This document shows positions 6,441 through 46,228 of a stretch of 64,000 nt of DNA, one piece after another. The notes beneath the pieces are model-generated. The model did no database searches. It saw only the letters and a list, made by a program, of their open reading frames with translations, and had not been told where the DNA came from. Source of the DNA: an uncultured Eubacteriales bacterium (GTDB taxonomy: Bacteria; Bacillota; Clostridia; Christensenellales; Aristaeellaceae); contig CADARO010000007.1 in NCBI GenBank assembly GCA_902790345.1, forward strand, positions 3,693 through 67,692, written 5' to 3'. The position numbers and the translations under genes are program-made. Each line of letters opens with the position of its first letter. Position 1 is the first letter of the stretch.

Positions 6441-6612
6441 CGCGGCCTGTGTTACTCCCCCCTTGAATACAGGCGCGCCTTGCCGATTTGACGGGCGCTT
6501 CATAAAAGTCACACCGTGAAATAATAATGATTTAAGAAAATGTACAAACATCAAAATAGTCATTGATTTTTTTGAAAATATATGATACCATAGGCATGGA
6601 TATTCACCTGAA

Positions 6613-17488: not shown

Positions 17489-17671
17489 TCGACGGAGAAG
17501 AAAGCAATGCGCAGCGCCACGGCATGAACCGTGGTGCTGTGTTATGTTCTGCGATATATTATTGTTGACAGAAAGGCAGGAAAAGGGGGAGAGGAGAGAG
17601 AACTAATTATATCATACAGTAGTTTTATTCGTTTCGTTTCACATACACGGAGCAAAAGGAGCGTTGCGGCG

Positions 17672-39438: not shown

Positions 39439-40068
39439 TCAGTGCCTGTCCCGCTCGGACAGCAGCTTTTGCAGCTTGCGCTTGATGCGCTGCAGCGCGT
39501 TGTCGATGGACTTCACGTGGCGGCCCAGCTCGTCGGAGATGTCCTGATAGCTCTTGCCGTCCAGATAGCGCAGGAGCACCTGCTTCTCCAGGGGGGACAG
39601 CATGTCGCCGATGCGGCCCTCGATGAGGGCGATGTCCTCCCGGGAGATGAGCAGCTCCTCCGGGCTGGAGGCCATTTCCTCGCTGATGATGTCCATGAGG
39701 GTGCGGTCGGTCTCGTCGTCGAAGATGGGCTTGTTGAGGGACACGTAGGAGTTCAGCGGGATGTGCTTCTGGCGCGTGGCGGTCTTGATGGCGGTGATGA
39801 TCTGGCGGGTGATGCACAGCTCCGCAAAGGCCCGGAAGGAGGACAGCTTTTCGCTCTTGTAATCGCGGATGGCCTTGTACAGGCCGATCATGCCTTCCTG
39901 CACGATGTCCTCGTGGTCCGCGCCGATCAGGAAATAGCTGCGCGCCCTGGAGCGCACGAAGTTTTTGTATTTATTCAGCAGATAGTCCAGCGCCGCCCCG
40001 TCGGAGGCCTGGGCCAGCGCCACGATGTCCTCGTCGGACATGTCGCGGAAGCGTTCGTTTGCGTCCAT
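39439..40068 (-). CDS. sigH: RNA polymerase sigma factor SigH (Spo0H-type)
   Basis: DIVQEGMIGLYKAIRDYK, FRAFAELCITRQIITAIKTATRQKH, LSPLEKQVLLRYLDGKSYQDISDELGRHVKSIDNALQRIKRKL. It also sits in the conserved position after yacP. Confidence 0.9.
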   Translation of the reverse strand: MDANERFRDMSDEDIVALAQASDGAALDYLLNKYKNFVRSRARSYFLIGADHEDIVQEGMIGLYKAIRDYKSEKLSSFRAFAELCITRQIITAIKTATRQKHIPLNSYVSLNKPIFDDETDRTLMDIISEEMASSPEELLISREDIALIEGRIGDMLSPLEKQVLLRYLDGKSYQDISDELGRHVKSIDNALQRIKRKLQKLLSERDRH

Positions 40069-40605
40069 TTATTGTTCTCCCCGCCGCAGCTTTTCCAGCC
40101 GCGCGCGCACGTCCTCCGGCATGTGCTCCATGATGGTGGTGCGCCCGGAGGCGCGACCGGCCGGATGGGCGTATTGCTCACCGCTCTGCCTGGCCTGGCG
40201 CATTTCGTAGATCAGCTCCCGGGAGCTGATGCGCACCGCGCCTCGGCCGAACACCACGGTCTGCTCCGTGCCGTCCGAGGTGGCCACCCGCAGCTCCAGC
40301 CGCCCCAGCTCCACCTGCCGGGCGTGCTCGTCGCACAGGCGCTCGATGTAGTGGTCCGCGGTCTCGCCCTTCTGGGTGAACACGATGGTCAGCGGACCCC
40401 GGGTCTCGCTGGAGCGCTCCGTGCGGTCGGACAGCCAGGCGTCGAACACCAGCACGATCCGCTGGCCGGAATAGCCCGCGTAGTCGTGCAGGCGAAGGAT
40501 CAGCGCGTCCCGGGCGTCGGCCAGGGGCTTGCCCTTCGACAGCTCCGGCCACGCGCCCAGCACGTTGTAGCCGTCCACCACCAGCAGCCTTGCCTTGCCC
40601 GCCAT
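40069..40605 (-). CDS. yacP: NYN-domain ribonuclease YacP/Rae1-like
   Basis: MAGKARLLVVDGYNVLGAWPEL...IVLVFDA...ETADHYIERL...ATSDGTEQ. Confidence 0.85.
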   Translation of the reverse strand: MAGKARLLVVDGYNVLGAWPELSKGKPLADARDALILRLHDYAGYSGQRIVLVFDAWLSDRTERSSETRGPLTIVFTQKGETADHYIERLCDEHARQVELGRLELRVATSDGTEQTVVFGRGAVRISSRELIYEMRQARQSGEQYAHPAGRASGRTTIMEHMPEDVRARLEKLRRGEQ

Positions 40606-40610
40606 GGAGG

Positions 40611-41765
40611 TCAGCCCCTTCTCGCGTTCACGACGGCATACATCATGATGCCCGCCGCGACAGAGGCGTTGAGCGAGTCGATGTGTCCCTTCATGGGCAG
40701 GCTCAGCTTCAGGTCGCACTTCTTCAGCGTCAGCTCGGAAATGCCCTCGCCCTCCGCGCCGATGACGATGGCCATGGGCCCGGTCAGGTCGGCCTTCAGG
40801 GCGTCCTCGCCGTCCATGGTGGCCCCGACCACCCACAGGCCGTGCTCCTTCAGCGTCTCCAGCGTGCGGTTCACGTTGGTCACGCGCACCACGTTCATGT
40901 ACTCGCAGGCGCCCGCCGACGCCTTCACCGCCGCCGGGGTCAGGCCCACGCTGCGGCGCTCCGGAATGATGACGCCGTGAGCGCCGGCGCACTCCGCCGT
41001 GCGGATGATGGCGCCCAGGTTGTGGGGGTCGGTGATGCCGTCCAGCACCACCACGAAGGGCTCCTCGCCCCGCTCGGAGGCGGTCTCAAAGATGTCGTCC
41101 AGCTCCGAATAGGAGGCGGAGGACACGAAGGCGATCATGCCCTGATGGTTGGGATAGATGGCGTCCAGCCGGGTGCGGTCCACCTCCTGCACCACGATGC
41201 CCGCCGCGTGGGCCTTTGCCACGATCTCCCGGGCCGAGCCGGACAGGTCGCCCCGGGCCACCATCAGCTTCTCGATGTCCCGGCCGGCCTTGATGGCCTC
41301 GCGGATGGGGTTGCGCCCGGCCAGCAGGTTTTCCGGCTCCGCGCTCACCGGCGCGGCGGGCTCCGCCATCAGCCGAGCCAGGGGATCGGTCTCCGTGTTG
41401 CCGAAGGGCGCGTCGAACCGGGCGCGGGGCGGACGGGGAGCTTCCCGCCGCTCAGGACCCTTGCTGCCGAAATCCCGCTTGAAACCCTCTTTTTTAGGGA
41501 AACGGTCTCCCGATTCGCCATAGTTTCGACTGGTTTTAGGGAACTCGTTTCGCCGGCCGCCCTGCGGGCCATCGCCGCGGGTCGGGCGGGGGCCGCGCTC
41601 AAAGCGGTCGCCCCGGTCGGCGTGATAGCCCTCGTCCCGGCGGCCGTAGCCGGTGTCCCGGCGCTCATAGCCGCCTTCCCGACGGCCGTAGCCCTCGTCC
41701 CGGCGCTCGAAGCGGCCCTCACGGCCCTGTCGGCCGTTGTTTTTGCCAAATTTATCGTATGCCAT
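40611..41765 (-). CDS. rlmB: 23S rRNA (guanosine-2'-O)-methyltransferase RlmB with a ~130-aa Arg/Gly/Glu/Tyr-rich N-terminal extension
   Basis: SpoU/TrmH motifs: LDGITDPHNLGAIIRTAECAGAHGVI, IVIGAEGEGIS, IPMKGHIDSLNASVAAGI. The preceding SpoU_sub_bind region is GRNPIREAIKAG. Confidence 0.9.
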   Translation of the reverse strand: MAYDKFGKNNGRQGREGRFERRDEGYGRREGGYERRDTGYGRRDEGYHADRGDRFERGPRPTRGDGPQGGRRNEFPKTSRNYGESGDRFPKKEGFKRDFGSKGPERREAPRPPRARFDAPFGNTETDPLARLMAEPAAPVSAEPENLLAGRNPIREAIKAGRDIEKLMVARGDLSGSAREIVAKAHAAGIVVQEVDRTRLDAIYPNHQGMIAFVSSASYSELDDIFETASERGEEPFVVVLDGITDPHNLGAIIRTAECAGAHGVIIPERRSVGLTPAAVKASAGACEYMNVVRVTNVNRTLETLKEHGLWVVGATMDGEDALKADLTGPMAIVIGAEGEGISELTLKKCDLKLSLPMKGHIDSLNASVAAGIMMYAVVNARRG

Positions 41766-41805
41766 GTATATTTCCTTCCCGGAGCGCGGCGCGGGCCGCC
41801 TCCCT

Positions 41806-42549
41806 TCAATCTGTCTGACGCTTCAGCGCCTGCGCCCGTTCCCGAACCTCGGCGGTTTTGCCGCAGCATTTTTTGCCTTCCGGGCAGGGGCCCCGCAGGC
41901 AGCCGGGGCCGGCGTCCTCAAACAGGGCGGGGGCCGCCTCGTAGGCCAGGGCCAGCATCTGCCAGGCCACGGAGCGGATCTCCCACTGGGCGCGGCTGCA
42001 GCAGCGCAGGCTGAGGAAATGGGTCAGCTCCCGGGCGTTCATGGTCACCAGCATGCGGGTGGCCGCGGCGTTGGGCAGCACGAAGCGGGCGTCCTCGTTG
42101 CTCTTCTCGCCGTCGCCCAGCTTTTTGCGCCAGGCCTGATACCAGCCGTTCATCTGCTCCATCTGGCGGCGGTATTCGGCGGCGTCCTCTTCGCCCAGAG
42201 CCTCGATGGCCGGGGGCACGATGTAGTCGAAGCCGGTCTCGTCGTCGCCCAGGGCCACGTAGCGCTGGGACTGAACGGAAAAGCTGGCGATGCGGTGGCG
42301 GGTGATCTGCGCCAGGAAGCTGCGGGACACGCCCTCGATGCCAAAGGTGAAGGAGGCGTGCTCCACGGGGGAGAGATGACCCATGTCCATGAGCCGATTG
42401 ATGAATTTCGTCTGATCCTTCTTCGCCACGCCCTCGCCCAGATCGTCCAGATCGGAGGCGGAATAGCACAGCTTGGCCGCCATGGCCACCAGCTCCTCCG
42501 GCGCGGGGGTGTATCGGATCAGTTTGACTTTGGGTATAACCTGCGGCAC
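41806..42549 (-). CDS. thyX: FAD-dependent thymidylate synthase ThyX
   Basis: ThyX signature ITRHRIASFSVQSQRY. Confidence 0.92.
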   Translation of the reverse strand: MPQVIPKVKLIRYTPAPEELVAMAAKLCYSASDLDDLGEGVAKKDQTKFINRLMDMGHLSPVEHASFTFGIEGVSRSFLAQITRHRIASFSVQSQRYVALGDDETGFDYIVPPAIEALGEEDAAEYRRQMEQMNGWYQAWRKKLGDGEKSNEDARFVLPNAAATRMLVTMNARELTHFLSLRCCSRAQWEIRSVAWQMLALAYEAAPALFEDAGPGCLRGPCPEGKKCCGKTAEVRERAQALKRQTD

Positions 42550-42630
42550 GTCTCTTTCCTCCCACTCACAAACTGACTCTCTTCTCTTTTCTCTATTCTC
42601 TGTTCTCTCTTCTCAAAAAGCGCGAAGCGC

Positions 42631-43020
42631 CTAATTCTCCTCCGGCAGCGCCGCGTTCATCAGCTCCTCCATCCGTGAGCGCTGCCCGGTGAGATACAGC
42701 CAGCCCACCAGCGCCTCCAGGGCGGTGGCGCGGTGATACTCGCCGGGATCGGCGTTCTTCGTGGGGGACTGGCGGGCGTTGCGGGCCCGGCGCACCACGG
42801 CGGCCTCCTCCTCGGTGAGCATGGCCTCGATCCGCTCCAGCGCTTCGCTCTGGGCCTTGGCGCACACCTGCTTCACCGCGGCGCGGTGCAGCTCCTTCAT
42901 GCGCCCGCCCTTTTTCACCAGGCGGGAGCGCACCATCAGATCCCACAGCGTGTCGCCCAAATAGGCCAGCTCCAGCGAGCCGGGCAGCTGCCCCTGGGGG
43001 AAGGCGCTCCTGTCCATCAC
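42631..43020 (-). CDS. mrnC: Mini-ribonuclease III
   Basis: LELAYLGDTLWDLMVRSRLV...QSEALERIEAMLTEEEAAVVRRARN...YHRATALEALVGWLYL. A GTG start at 43020 or the ATG at 43017; either overlaps the stop of the upstream kinase gene. Confidence 0.85.
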   Translation of the reverse strand: MMDRSAFPQGQLPGSLELAYLGDTLWDLMVRSRLVKKGGRMKELHRAAVKQVCAKAQSEALERIEAMLTEEEAAVVRRARNARQSPTKNADPGEYHRATALEALVGWLYLTGQRSRMEELMNAALPEEN

Positions 43021-44501
43021 TTGTTGATGAGCGCCAGCAGACGCTCATAGGCGGCATCCCACGCGGCGGCGTCGCCCTCCGGCAGGTACTCCACGTTCTC
43101 AAAGGACGCGGCCACCACCTGGCGCATCTCGGCGATGGAGCCGATGCGGCCCAGCGCCACGGCCTGCACCAGCAGGTTGCCGATGACTGTGCCCTCGCTG
43201 GGGCCGGCCACCACCGGCCGGTTGATGGCGCAGGCGGTCATGCGGTTCAGCATCAGGTTCTTGCTGCCGCCGCCCACGATGTGCAGCACGTCGATTTTCC
43301 GGTGCAGCAGGTCCTGCTCCAGCCGCTCGATGGCCCAGCGGTATTTCAGCGCCAGCGACTCGTAGATCACGCGGGAGATCTCGCCCCGGCCCTCGGGCAC
43401 TGGCTGATTCGTCTCGCGGCAGTACTGCTGGATGCGGGCGGGCATGTCGCCGGGGGCCAGGAAGCGGGTGTCGTCCACGTCGATGACGGCCTTGAAGGCG
43501 GGGGCCTTCTCGGCCAGCTCCACCAGGCCGGCGAAGTCCACCGCGTCGGCGCGGCGGTCCCACTCCCGCTTGCATTCCTGGATCATCCACAGGCCCATGA
43601 TGTTCTTCAGCAGCCGAGTGGTGCCGTTGATGCCGCCCTCGTTGGTGTAGTTGGCCTTCATGACCTCCACGCTGGACAGGGGCTCCATGATCTCCGCGCC
43701 CAGCAGCGACCAGGTGCCGGAGCTGATGTAGGCGAAGCTGGAACCCTCCCGGGCGGGCACGGCGGCCACGGCGGAGGCGGTGTCATGGCTGCCCACGGCG
43801 ATCACGGGCACCTGGGCCATGCCCACCTCGTCCGCGATCTCCTTCAGCAGCAGGCCGCGCACGGTGCCAGCGGGCTGGATCTTGGTGAGCATCTTCGTGG
43901 GCAGGCCGAACTTCTCGATGAGGCCCCAGGCCCAGTCGCGGGTGTGGGGGTCGATGAGCTGGCTGGTGGAGGCGATGGTGTACTCCGTGGCCTTCTCGCC
44001 GGTGAGGAAATAGGCCAGCAGGTCCGGCATGAACAGCATGGTGTCCGCCAGGTCGAGGGTGGGATCGTTCTGCTTCTTCATGGCCAGCAGCTGATAGAGC
44101 GTGTTGAACTGCATGAACGCCAGGCCCGTGGCCTCGAAGATGTCCTCCTTCGGAACCGTCTTGAAGGCCTCTTCCATCATGCCGTCGGTGCGGGCGTCGC
44201 GGTAGTTCACCGGGATGCCCAGAAGCTGGCCGTTTTTGTCCAGCAGGCCGTAGTCCACGCCCCAGGTGTCGATGCCGATGCCGTCCAGTTTGATGCCCGC
44301 CTTCACGGCCTTCAGGAGCGCCGCCTTCATCTCAAAGAACAGGCGCTGCACGTCCCACACGAAGCGGCCGTTCAGCATGACCGGATCGTTGGAAAAGCGG
44401 TGCAGCTCCTCCAGCTTCAGCGTCTCGCCGTCGTAGGTGCCCAGCATGGCGCGGCCGCTGGACGCGCCGAAATCAAAGCCCAGCAGATGCAGTGTGTCCA
44501 T
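43017..44501 (-). CDS. rhaB: Rhamnulokinase-like FGGY carbohydrate kinase
   Basis: FDFGASSGRAMLG, LHRFSNDPV, GIGIDTWGVDYGLLDKNGQLLGIPVNYRDARTDG, HIVGGGSKN. GAGGAGG RBS. Confidence 0.8.
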   Translation of the reverse strand: MDTLHLLGFDFGASSGRAMLGTYDGETLKLEELHRFSNDPVMLNGRFVWDVQRLFFEMKAALLKAVKAGIKLDGIGIDTWGVDYGLLDKNGQLLGIPVNYRDARTDGMMEEAFKTVPKEDIFEATGLAFMQFNTLYQLLAMKKQNDPTLDLADTMLFMPDLLAYFLTGEKATEYTIASTSQLIDPHTRDWAWGLIEKFGLPTKMLTKIQPAGTVRGLLLKEIADEVGMAQVPVIAVGSHDTASAVAAVPAREGSSFAYISSGTWSLLGAEIMEPLSSVEVMKANYTNEGGINGTTRLLKNIMGLWMIQECKREWDRRADAVDFAGLVELAEKAPAFKAVIDVDDTRFLAPGDMPARIQQYCRETNQPVPEGRGEISRVIYESLALKYRWAIERLEQDLLHRKIDVLHIVGGGSKNLMLNRMTACAINRPVVAGPSEGTVIGNLLVQAVALGRIGSIAEMRQVVAASFENVEYLPEGDAAAWDAAYERLLALINK

Positions 44502-44607
44502 ATCGCAATCCTCCTCGTTTCCTGGCCGGATATTTTCCCATACAACTACAGCCTATATTATATCAGAACTTGACCCACCCTGCAAGCCCATTTGCGCGCG
44601 GCCGGCC

Positions 44608-45070
44608 TGTGGATAACCTGCCGCCGCCTGTGCAAAATCCGGCCGCTTCCGAACGCCTGTACTGTGGATGTTGTGGATAAATAACAGGGTTATCCACAAC
44701 CTTTTTCACAAAAAAATCGTCGTTTTCCGCCGAACACATTTTCGACGAAACACAGACATAATATTGATTTAAGAATGAAATAATATTGAAACATTTCTGA
44801 AATATATATCCCTCGGCGCATGAAAACCCGCAAATTTATGCCCCGGATTGGGGAAAAAAGCGCGAAGTTATCCACATTTTCCACCGATTTCTGTGGAAAA
44901 CCTGGGCACAAGACTGTGCACATCCCGTGCATATTCTGTCACAAATGGCCGTTTATGCAACAAATCGCGGCCCAAATCCAACGAAAAAGGGGCCGGTCAG
45001 GGCGCCTTCACACCCCGCCGACCCCACAATAATCCCTTTCCACGCCTCCATGTGGATAACCTGTGGAAAC
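44608..45070. promoter_or_regulatory. DnaA-box cluster with an adjacent AT-rich tract
   Basis: Perfect TTATCCACA / TGTGGATAA 9-mers at 44608-16, 44672-80, 44690-98, 44868-76 and 45051-59. Near-matches occur at 44664-72, 44892-900 and 45062-70. An AT-rich stretch lies at about 44740-44815. Confidence 0.7.
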
Positions 45071-45133
45071 CTGTGCAAAACCTGTGCGCAGGACTGCCCT
45101 TCCCGCTTTGCTGACGCGGTCCCTTCGGGCAAA

Positions 45134-46228
45134 CTAAAATTCCCCATTCCCCATTCCCCATTCCCCATTGGCGATCAGCCCCAGCGAGGGGATCGCGTTC
45201 AGGGACAGGGGCGCGATTTCCCCCTTCATGAGGCGGTAGAACGCCGCGCTGCCGATCATGGCGGCGTTGTCGGTGCACAGGATGGCCGGGGGCATGAAGG
45301 TCTCAAGCCCCGCCCTCTTGCCCAGCCGCTGGATCTCCCGCCGCAGCAGCCGGTTGCTGGCCACGCCGCCCGCCAGCGCCAACCGGGTGAGCCCGCTGTC
45401 ACGGCAGGCGCGGATGGTCTTCTCCGTCAGGGCGTCCACCACCGCCCGGCGGAAGGAGGCTGCCCAGTCCGCCGCGTTGATAGCCTCTCCCGCCTGACGC
45501 AGGTGATGCGCCTGATTGATGACGGCGGTCTTCAGCCCGCTGAAGGAGAAATCGTAGGGCCCGGGGGTGTGGATCTTCGGGAAGGCGTAGGCGTGGTCGT
45601 CGCCCTCCTCGGCCAGCTTGTCCAGCAGCGGGCCGCCGGGGTAGGGGATGTCCAGCACCCGGGCCACCTTGTCGAAGGCCTCGCCGGCGGCGTCGTCGGT
45701 GGTGCCGCCCAGGATGGTGTATTCGCCGTAGTCGTCCACCCGCACAATATGGCTGTGCCCGCCGGAGGCCACCAGGCACACGAAGGGCGGTTCCAAATCC
45801 GGATGGGCGATGTAGTTGGCGCTCACATGGCCCTCGATGTGGTTCACCGGCACCAGCGGCAGGCCGCTGGCGTAGGCGAAGGCCTTGGCCCAGGCCACGC
45901 CGGTGAGCAGCGCGCCCACCAGCCCCGGCCCGTAGGTCACGGCCACGGCGTCGATGTCCGCCATGGTCATGCTGGCCTGTTGAAGCGTCTGATCCAGCAG
46001 CGGGTCCAGGGCCTGCACGTGCATGCGGGAGGCGATTTCCGGCACCACGCCGCCGTACAGGGCGTGCATGTCGATCTGGGAGGCGATGACGCTGGATACC
46101 AGCCGCCGCCCGTCTTCCACCACGGCCATGGCCGTCTCGTCGCAGCTGGATTCCACCGCCAGCACGCGGGCGTGCCTTTTCTCCATGAGCAAACCGGCCT
46201 TCTCCCGGGCCAGGGATTCGTAAGTCAT
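45134..46228 (-). CDS. tsaD: tRNA N6-adenosine threonylcarbamoyltransferase TsaD
   Basis: VLAVESSCDETAMAVV, YGPGLVGALLTG, VNHIEGH, GGTTDDAAGEAFDKVAR, LAGGVASN. The ATG overlaps the upstream stop (ATGA). The last 10 codons are encoded by a 7-nt tandem repeat. Confidence 0.92.
   Translation of the reverse strand: MTYESLAREKAGLLMEKRHARVLAVESSCDETAMAVVEDGRRLVSSVIASQIDMHALYGGVVPEIASRMHVQALDPLLDQTLQQASMTMADIDAVAVTYGPGLVGALLTGVAWAKAFAYASGLPLVPVNHIEGHVSANYIAHPDLEPPFVCLVASGGHSHIVRVDDYGEYTILGGTTDDAAGEAFDKVARVLDIPYPGGPLLDKLAEEGDDHAYAFPKIHTPGPYDFSFSGLKTAVINQAHHLRQAGEAINAADWAASFRRAVVDALTEKTIRACRDSGLTRLALAGGVASNRLLRREIQRLGKRAGLETFMPPAILCTDNAAMIGSAAFYRLMKGEIAPLSLNAIPSLGLIANGEWGMGNGEF
45142..45169. repeat. 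Perfect heptanucleotide tandem repeat: (CCCCATT)x4 on +, (AATGGGG)x4 on the coding strand
   Basis: Read directly. The repeat lies inside the 3' end of tsaD (translated ...NGEWGMGNGEF*). The coding-strand sequence has four GGGG runs separated by 3-nt loops. Confidence 0.9.

Follow-up and report, generated by a model that had tools for sequence, protein, structure and literature searches.

Does a dense cluster of DnaA boxes directly downstream of tsaD represent a replication origin, a regulatory region, or a DnaA-binding site of another kind? We investigated this question in a 64-kb window, the whole stretch of DNA analyzed here (overall GC content of 62.7%), which is part of an 83-kb metagenomic scaffold (ENA ERZ28613018, scaffold_381). 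The closest genomes are metagenome-assembled genomes (MAGs) of uncultured Clostridia, Christensenellales-like, from rumen and gut, none of which is closed. The element of interest occupies the non-coding gap of 632 bp at positions 44502-45133, located 3' of tsaD and 5' of a rhamnulokinase gene (rhaB). It is probably a non-origin DnaA-box cluster (DBC) anchored to the 3' end of tsaD, and the positional counterpart of the cluster between gcp (tsaD) and ydiF in Bacillus subtilis (DBC[gcp-ydiF]).

This kind of cluster is already known from B. subtilis downstream of gcp, and the one described here was largely expected. Eight stable DnaA sites of B. subtilis were proven by chromatin affinity precipitation on tiling arrays (ChAP-chip) (Ishikawa et al., 2007; PMC2533591). 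The cluster downstream of gcp is among the strongest DnaA-binding sites of that genome; the role of this site has been described as "not clear", and its single deletion had no phenotype. DnaA binding to the gcp site was observed both in vivo and in vitro (PMC2533591; PMC4447404), with a dissociation constant of about 0.15 μM and a 16-fold preference for the ATP-bound over the ADP-bound form (Smith and Grossman, 2015; PMC4447404). An earlier note on this window had pointed to a non-origin DnaA cluster next to gcp, in agreement with the literature. On box clusters at tsaD/gcp in Clostridia or Firmicutes, the paper library that we searched contained no literature beyond three studies (PMC2533591; PMC4447404; PMC3245932). 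New in the present analysis are the linkage to tsaD reaching across the Bacilli-Clostridia divide, a conserved AT-rich core, and an embedded terminator.

Box content and conservation next to tsaD

The perfect DnaA box TTATCCACA occurs five times in the window, and all five copies reside within 44608-45059, two on the plus and three on the minus strand:

44608-44616, minus strand, perfect box
44672-44680, minus strand, perfect box
44690-44698, plus strand, perfect box
44868-44876, plus strand, perfect box
45051-45059, minus strand, perfect box

In dinucleotide-preserving shuffles of the window, perfect boxes numbered 0.16 on average and 2 at most. The earlier note had counted the same five 9-mers in both orientations and at least three near-matches; the near-matches within the gap number eight:

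44892, minus strand, one-mismatch box TTTTCCACA
44629, 44663, 44849, 45062, and 45072, minus strand, two-mismatch boxes
44702 and 44877, plus strand, two-mismatch boxes

The gap thereby contains 13 boxes with at most two mismatches (five perfect, one with one mismatch, and seven with two), compared with a background density of 1.1 per 632 bp in the rest of the window, where the best window contains 8. With the published box definition (TTATNCACA, at most one mismatch), nine boxes are found in the gap, five of them perfect. The density of a DBC, i.e., at least four closely spaced TTATNCACA boxes with consensus ones included, is found in the tsaD gap: the tightest four boxes have a mean gap of 15.3 bp, inside the range of 3.7-21 bp covered by the eight B. 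subtilis sites (PMC2533591, Table 2). The box cluster is genuine and strongly non-random.

We scanned a genome collection with the TsaD of the window and obtained 58 loci from other genomes, 56 of which could be scored. Boxes with at most one mismatch were counted in the 600 bp after tsaD, loci with at least three such boxes were regarded as positive, and 699 windows from the same loci served as controls. Lack of conservation of the boxes in relatives had been named beforehand as evidence that would speak against the proposed cluster, and the comparison did not refute it: at least three boxes follow tsaD in 17 of the 56 loci versus 2 of the 699 control windows, with Bacillales in the gcp/ydiF arrangement among the positives. 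Both positive control windows correspond to the homologous cluster of locus L013, which is displaced from tsaD by two inserted ABC-exporter genes.

Within the clade of the window, the box-bearing loci are L003, L006-L011, and L031, plus L013, with TsaD identities of 75-89%. The gene on the far side of the cluster, often convergent, is rhaB, DegV, ispH-S1, a dehydrogenase, or a Gfo/Idh/MocA oxidoreductase. Since the far-side gene varies while tsaD is constant, the cluster travels with tsaD. Among the more distant Clostridia (about 50% TsaD identity), the boxes of the positive loci are located between tsaD and a gene for a Rex-type redox repressor. The three positive Bacillales (Neobacillus, Jeotgalibacillus, and Aquibacillus) show tsaD, boxes, and a convergent ABC-F (ydiF-type) gene, matching the gcp/ydiF arrangement of B. 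subtilis. The loci also share details of the arrangement. An abutting head-to-tail pair TGTGGATAA-TGTGGATAA in the direction of tsaD is present in the window, L003, L006-L011, and the Bacillales, usually 150-270 bp past the tsaD stop codon; in the rex group, a likewise oriented pair spaced by 3 bp occurs at a similar offset. That distant Clostridia repeat this arrangement after tsaD while the far-side gene changes argues for selection and for a tie to tsaD. No boxes follow tsaD in the non-Firmicute loci (Proteobacteria and one cyanobacterium).

The rex group (L038-L041, L043, L046, and L047) has three to five boxes in one orientation at about +90 to +205 after tsaD, ending 70-90 bp before the rex start codon, and this position suggests a possible DnaA input on rex in distant Clostridia. 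At L012:7056-8403 (81% TsaD identity), which has no cluster, mnmE/trmE starts 13 bp after tsaD. B. subtilis trmE (thdF) has another DnaA-box cluster upstream (thdF-jag). The cluster-adjacent B. subtilis genes gcp, ywlC, and thdF all concern modification of the tRNA anticodon loop, gcp and ywlC being assigned to the synthesis of N6-threonylcarbamoyladenosine (t6A).

Two further searches gave no candidates. A scan of metagenome contigs for the module irrespective of its context (TTAANNCAATATTATN{55,62}TGTGGATAA) returned only two chance matches in coding DNA of low-GC organisms, one in an ORF (open reading frame) of 768 amino acids of uncertain identity and one in another coding stretch. As for a mobile origin of the element, no sequence in the plasmid and phage collections matched the 632-bp gap by blastn.

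Anatomy of the gap and its neighborhood

In the direction of tsaD transcription, the gap and the two genes flanking it are organized as follows:

45134-46228, minus strand, tsaD, 364 amino acids (NCBIfam TIGR03723 TsaD, E=8.7e-126)
45051-45086, minus strand, proximal box array of three head-to-tail boxes with 10-11-bp phasing: 45051 perfect, 45062 GTTTCCACA, 45072 TTTTGCACA
44984-45025, minus strand, intrinsic terminator of tsaD inside the cluster: stem 44989-45025, U5 44984-44988
44849-44900, both strands, central-left box group: 44849 (minus) with two mismatches; 44868 (plus) perfect, abutting 44877 (plus) TTTTCCACC; 44892 (minus) TTTTCCACA, opposing
44734-44813, AT-rich core of 80 bp with 25% GC; the inner 60 bp, 44749-44808, have 18.3% GC
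44706-44759, minus strand, candidate hairpin (44719-44757) and U7 (44710-44716), overlapping a 17-codon micro-ORF, MSVFRRKCVRRKTTIFL
44663-44710, both strands, central-right box group: abutting 44663 (minus) ACATCCACA and 44672 (minus) perfect; 9 bp; 44690 (plus) perfect and 44702 (plus) TTTTTCACA
44601-44646, minus strand, distal box array: 44608 perfect and 44629 TTTTGCACA, spaced 21 bp
44557-44585, minus strand, putative sigma-A promoter of rhaB and downstream genes: TTGCAG, 17 bp, TGaTATAAT, read from the sequence
43017-44501, minus strand, rhaB-like rhamnulokinase gene (TIGR02627, E=3e-158, score of 527.0 versus a cut-off of 527.95)

The cluster begins immediately downstream of tsaD, with 54 bp between the stop codon and the first box (two mismatches) and 75 bp to the first perfect box. 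The proximal array was detected by TRF with a period of 11 and 3.4 copies. The distal array is a direct repeat of it (45044-45089, 74% identical; repeat family D2). The tsaD terminator folds with a ΔG of -32.4 kcal/mol (z = -3.7); it was skipped by a simple terminator scanner because of the loop and stem limits of that program. As the terminator is located downstream of the proximal array, the three boxes of the array are transcribed within the 3' untranslated region (3'UTR) of tsaD. An equivalent hairpin with a U-run was found in L003, L007, and L013; L003 and L013 keep the order of array and then terminator, and in L007 a single box precedes the terminator. The central-left group overlaps an inverted repeat (I3), and the central-right group contains a perfect 11-nt inverted repeat (I5). 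The arrangement of the latter, "<box n8-9 box>", has homologous counterparts in L007, L009, and L013. The putative promoter of rhaB, the -35 element of which lies 22 bp downstream of the end of the nearest perfect box, scores under the threshold of the promoter scanner and was identified by eye; L013 carries an identical TTGCAG-17-TATAAT.

The AT-rich stretch first outlined at 44740-44815 is real, with 26% GC versus 62.7% for the window. The core contains two direct repeats of CAATATTAT on the minus strand (44758-44766 and 44780-44788, 22 bp apart), which are the only two copies in the whole window (expected 0.05). AT-richness alone is not unique to this site because comparable tracts occur elsewhere in the window: 44749-44808 is only the second-lowest-GC 60-mer, position 6521 being lower and 19.7-20.4 kb similar. 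The sequence of the core is conserved beyond its composition among the window, L003, and L013 (about 80% identity), and a constant 58-59 bp separates it from the next box in these three loci. In L006-L011 and L031, the core is weak or absent (minimum GC of 0.30-0.38), although the boxes are kept. The safest statement is that the core appears to be a constrained AT-rich element between two DnaA-box groups, common to the closest relatives. It could serve for bending or looping between DnaA oligomers or for local melting.

A sigma-70-type promoter was found on neither strand of the core by the scanner or by manual reading with relaxed spacing, and an Rfam search of the cluster region gave only a sub-threshold chance match. 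A structured RNA in the core was considered and rejected: RNAalifold of the three core-bearing sequences gave only a weak fold (-2.4 kcal/mol), and the apparently compensatory changes by which the stems of the window and L003 differ can equally be read as synonymous changes of the micro-ORF, with L013 backing neither reading.

The low-GC patch at about 19500-20500 of the window (about 50% versus 63%) contains two one-mismatch DnaA boxes (19903 and 20097), and its local count of two-mismatch boxes is the second-highest. Its flanking ORFs (17531-19504 and neighbors) have no Pfam match, and it is possibly acquired DNA.

Upstream of the cluster, the genes in the direction of transcription are secA, an APH-family kinase gene, prfB, and genes for a GNAT acetyltransferase, a membrane protein, a cyclase, and a Lit-like membrane protein, followed by tsaD. 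Beyond the cluster come rhaB, mini-RNase III, thyX, rlmB, yacP, and sigH according to the Pfam annotation, all on the minus strand, as is every gene at 39.4-52.8 kb. In the window as a whole, gene orientation is mixed, with about 57% of the coding length on the minus strand. The rhamnulokinase gene heads an otherwise conserved housekeeping block, mini-RNase III-thyX-rlmB-yacP-sigH (39439-43020); its stop codon overlaps the start of the next gene, and a rhamnosidase-like gene and sugar ABC transporter genes are located just past sigH. The last ~10 codons of tsaD (45139-45169) consist of a perfect 7-bp tandem repeat (ATTCCCC, 4.4 copies), and the protein ends with NGEWGMGNGEF. Because the length of the unit is not divisible by 3, a change in copy number would alter the C-terminal tail. 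The TsaD proteins of the relatives stop about 10 residues before the end of the TsaD in the window.

Regulatory site, replication origin, or small gene

DnaA could act at this locus mainly as a transcription factor or roadblock, controlling the promoter of rhaB-mini-RNase III-thyX-rlmB-yacP-sigH, the termination of tsaD, or both. We consider this unlikely as the principal function, even though several features are compatible with it. The plausible promoter next to the distal perfect box recurs in L013, the cluster precedes the rhaB-…-sigH block in the window, L010, L013, and L031, and the proximal array is located in the tsaD 3'UTR just upstream of the terminator; in distant Clostridia, the boxes lie upstream of rex. 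Other DBCs of B. subtilis regulate adjacent genes, e.g., sda, ywlC, and yydA (PMC2533591). However, the clusters of L003, L006, L007, L009, L011, and the Bacillales reside between convergent genes with no downstream promoter to control, and the gcp-ydiF site was itself termed "uncharacteristic for transcriptional regulation" (Ishikawa et al., 2007; PMC2533591). Because the downstream gene differs by lineage, no single regulatory target explains the conservation. If the regulatory reading were true, the synthesis of deoxythymidine monophosphate and SigH would be linked to the replication status. A regulatory role may also coexist with a non-origin DBC.

It is very improbable that the cluster is a chromosomal, secondary, or relocated replication origin, with DnaA loaded at the boxes and unwinding in the 18%-GC core. 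In favor of this reading, the 13 boxes in both orientations flank the 60-bp core, within which a 9-bp direct repeat occurs twice and the sequence of which is shared with the closest relatives. Similar AT tracts are found in ordinary intergenic regions of the window, and the core is weak or absent in L006-L011 and L031. In L012, tsaD abuts mnmE/trmE, a gene typically origin-proximal in Firmicutes.

The gene context speaks against an origin. According to Pfam and NCBIfam annotation of the window and its parent scaffold, neither dnaA nor dnaN is present over a stretch that reaches about 19 kb from the cluster on the tsaD side and about 54 kb on the rhaB side, and a tblastn search with an ad hoc DnaA probe found no match in the window or any fetched locus. 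The earlier note had stated that no dnaA lies nearby, which holds over this distance; the cluster lacks the adjacency to dnaA/dnaN expected of an origin and, on the scaffold stretch covered, is outside oriC as DBCs are. Transcription of the eight genes secA through tsaD runs toward the cluster; on the same strand, the six genes rhaB through sigH are read away from it. With an origin at this site, replication would proceed head-on against the transcription of secA, prfB, and tsaD. The co-oriented flanks had been put forward before as an argument against an origin, an argument strengthened by five relatives in which both flanking genes converge on the cluster. Moreover, a transcription terminator is located inside the cluster, and the same position in Bacillales is occupied by a cluster known not to be an origin. 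Neither strand of 44502-45133 contains a run of at least three DnaA-trios (3'-[G/A]A[T/A]-5', the form of the motif applied to C. difficile; PMC7561715).

The analysis of GC skew that the earlier note had proposed was performed on the window by regression of the third-position skew on gene strand plus a step function. Neither GC skew nor GC3 skew shows a step at the cluster (step of -0.009, residuals unchanged), with low power in this genome. Third-codon-position skew follows gene strand (the coding strand is C-rich, coefficient of -0.117), with no replication-type step over 64 kb. As the skew follows gene strand only, the test has little power and is uninformative rather than decisive. Divergent genes combined with a switch in strand composition, the usual signature of an origin, are thus not seen at the cluster, the composition part of this comparison being low-powered.

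Least credible of all is a small DnaA-controlled gene resembling sda, in which a micro-ORF or short RNA would run from the AT core to the hairpin and U7 with the boxes as operators: the 17-codon ORF at 44706-44759 on the minus strand does overlap a hairpin followed by U7 (ΔG of -15.7 kcal/mol, z = -2.4), L003 does retain its first 10 codons (MSVFRRKCVR) through three synonymous codon changes, and the spacing from core to box is fixed, but the ORF has no Shine-Dalgarno sequence, neither strand of the core has a sigma-70-like promoter, L003 has lost the C-terminal part and the U-run, L013 has ATT in place of ATG and would encode another peptide, the aligned sequences fold weakly, Rfam gives no match, and the core is absent from more distant clade members.

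Possible function and comparison with known systems

The reading of the cluster as a non-origin DBC at the 3' end of tsaD suggests the following mechanism. ATP-DnaA would bind the five consensus boxes and spread cooperatively to the abutting and the 10-11-bp-phased weaker boxes. Stable DnaA oligomers would form on the two box groups flanking the AT-rich, easily bent or melted core, and the locus would hold, and possibly inactivate, DnaA away from oriC as a redundant negative control of initiation. At the window cluster, we infer the DnaA occupancy (from the sequence), the ATP-dependence, and any effect on initiation; directly observed are the boxes and how they are arranged, an occurrence that is not random, and a conservation beside tsaD that extends from Bacillales to Clostridia.

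Several points weigh against this reading. In B. subtilis, removal of all six non-origin DBCs led to early initiation, with the origin-to-terminus (ori/ter) ratio raised 1.37-fold (Okumura et al., 2012; PMC3245932). The single deletion of DBC[gcp-ydiF], however, left ori/ter unchanged (0.99), re-adding the gcp cluster to the six-deletion strain did not rescue it (1.35 versus 1.37), and a plasmid-borne cluster failed to complement, which according to the authors speaks against simple titration (PMC3245932). The explanation is at its weakest in the sink role because the gcp cluster alone has no measurable effect in B. subtilis and clusters on plasmids do not complement. The proposal of the earlier note, a DnaA sink or regulatory site next to tsaD, stands as far as the conserved tsaD-proximal cluster is concerned, whereas titration is not established for the gcp cluster even in B. 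subtilis. The distribution is also patchy: L004, L005, and L012 (81-89% identity) and most of the group with 58-72% identity have no boxes and carry other genes directly after tsaD. This patchiness implies that the cluster is dispensable at the position 3' of tsaD, and independent gains of the cluster are conceivable. Lastly, the conserved 18%-GC core between the box groups looks origin-like and has not been described for the Bacillus cluster.

A bolder version of the DBC reading strikes us as doubtful: the cluster 3' of tsaD would be an ancient, selectively maintained Firmicute element, in Bacilli and Clostridia, functionally tied to tsaD, and the core gained in the present lineage would make it an active DnaA-processing site instead of a passive sink. 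If this were true, the site might inactivate DnaA in a datA-like manner or be melted locally by DnaA as an initiation site of a cryptic or secondary kind. The practical impact of the cluster is modest, and it shows no new mechanism. It offers a way to study an unexplained part of initiation control by comparison among genomes, and it is a warning for origin prediction that dense boxes with an AT-rich tract in Clostridia drafts or MAGs are not necessarily oriC.

We compared the cluster with four known systems. It resembles the DnaA-regulated promoters of B. subtilis (dnaA, sda, ywlC/tsaC, and yydA) in that a promoter lies within about 20-100 bp of the boxes, at least in the window, L013, and L031; ywlC is tsaC by current naming and belongs to the same t6A pathway as tsaD. 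Unlike at those promoters, the tsaD cluster is located between convergent 3' ends in many lineages, with no promoter there.

With the bipartite oriC of Firmicutes (rpmH-dnaA-dnaN; basal unwinding system, BUS), it shares a box cluster, some tandem boxes, and an adjacent strongly AT-rich tract. Unlike that oriC, it is not beside dnaA/dnaN, has no DnaA-trio run, and includes a terminator; its AT tract is positioned between the box groups and not beyond a box-trio module, and its flanks are not divergent.

The datA locus of Escherichia coli, a negative regulator of initiation, consists of high-affinity DnaA boxes outside the origin, in groups around an AT-rich central site. The cluster of the window is similarly a non-origin site with box groups flanking an AT-rich center. 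It has no sequence relationship to datA, however, and datA is not linked to tsaD. Furthermore, datA requires integration host factor (IHF), whereas the IHF consensus WATCAANNNNTTR does not occur anywhere in the window; to our knowledge, Firmicutes generally lack IHF. datA also functions from plasmids, unlike the DBCs of B. subtilis (PMC3245932).

The closest parallel is DBC[gcp-ydiF], even though the two clusters differ in several respects. The window cluster extends over about 480 bp in two groups and both orientations, whereas the B. subtilis core covers about 50 bp with a mean gap of 5.3 bp. It contains the conserved 18%-GC core and the embedded tsaD terminator, and its downstream gene is co-directional (rhaB) where B. 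subtilis ydiF is convergent. The host belongs to a high-GC uncultured lineage of Clostridia, in which the boxes are known from sequence alone. Like DBC[gcp-ydiF], however, the window cluster is located immediately 3' of gcp/tsaD, outside oriC, and is conserved in relatives; it is composed of multiple consensus TTATCCACA boxes with abutting head-to-tail pairs in the direction of tsaD, and it has no obvious regulated gene common to the lineages that carry it.

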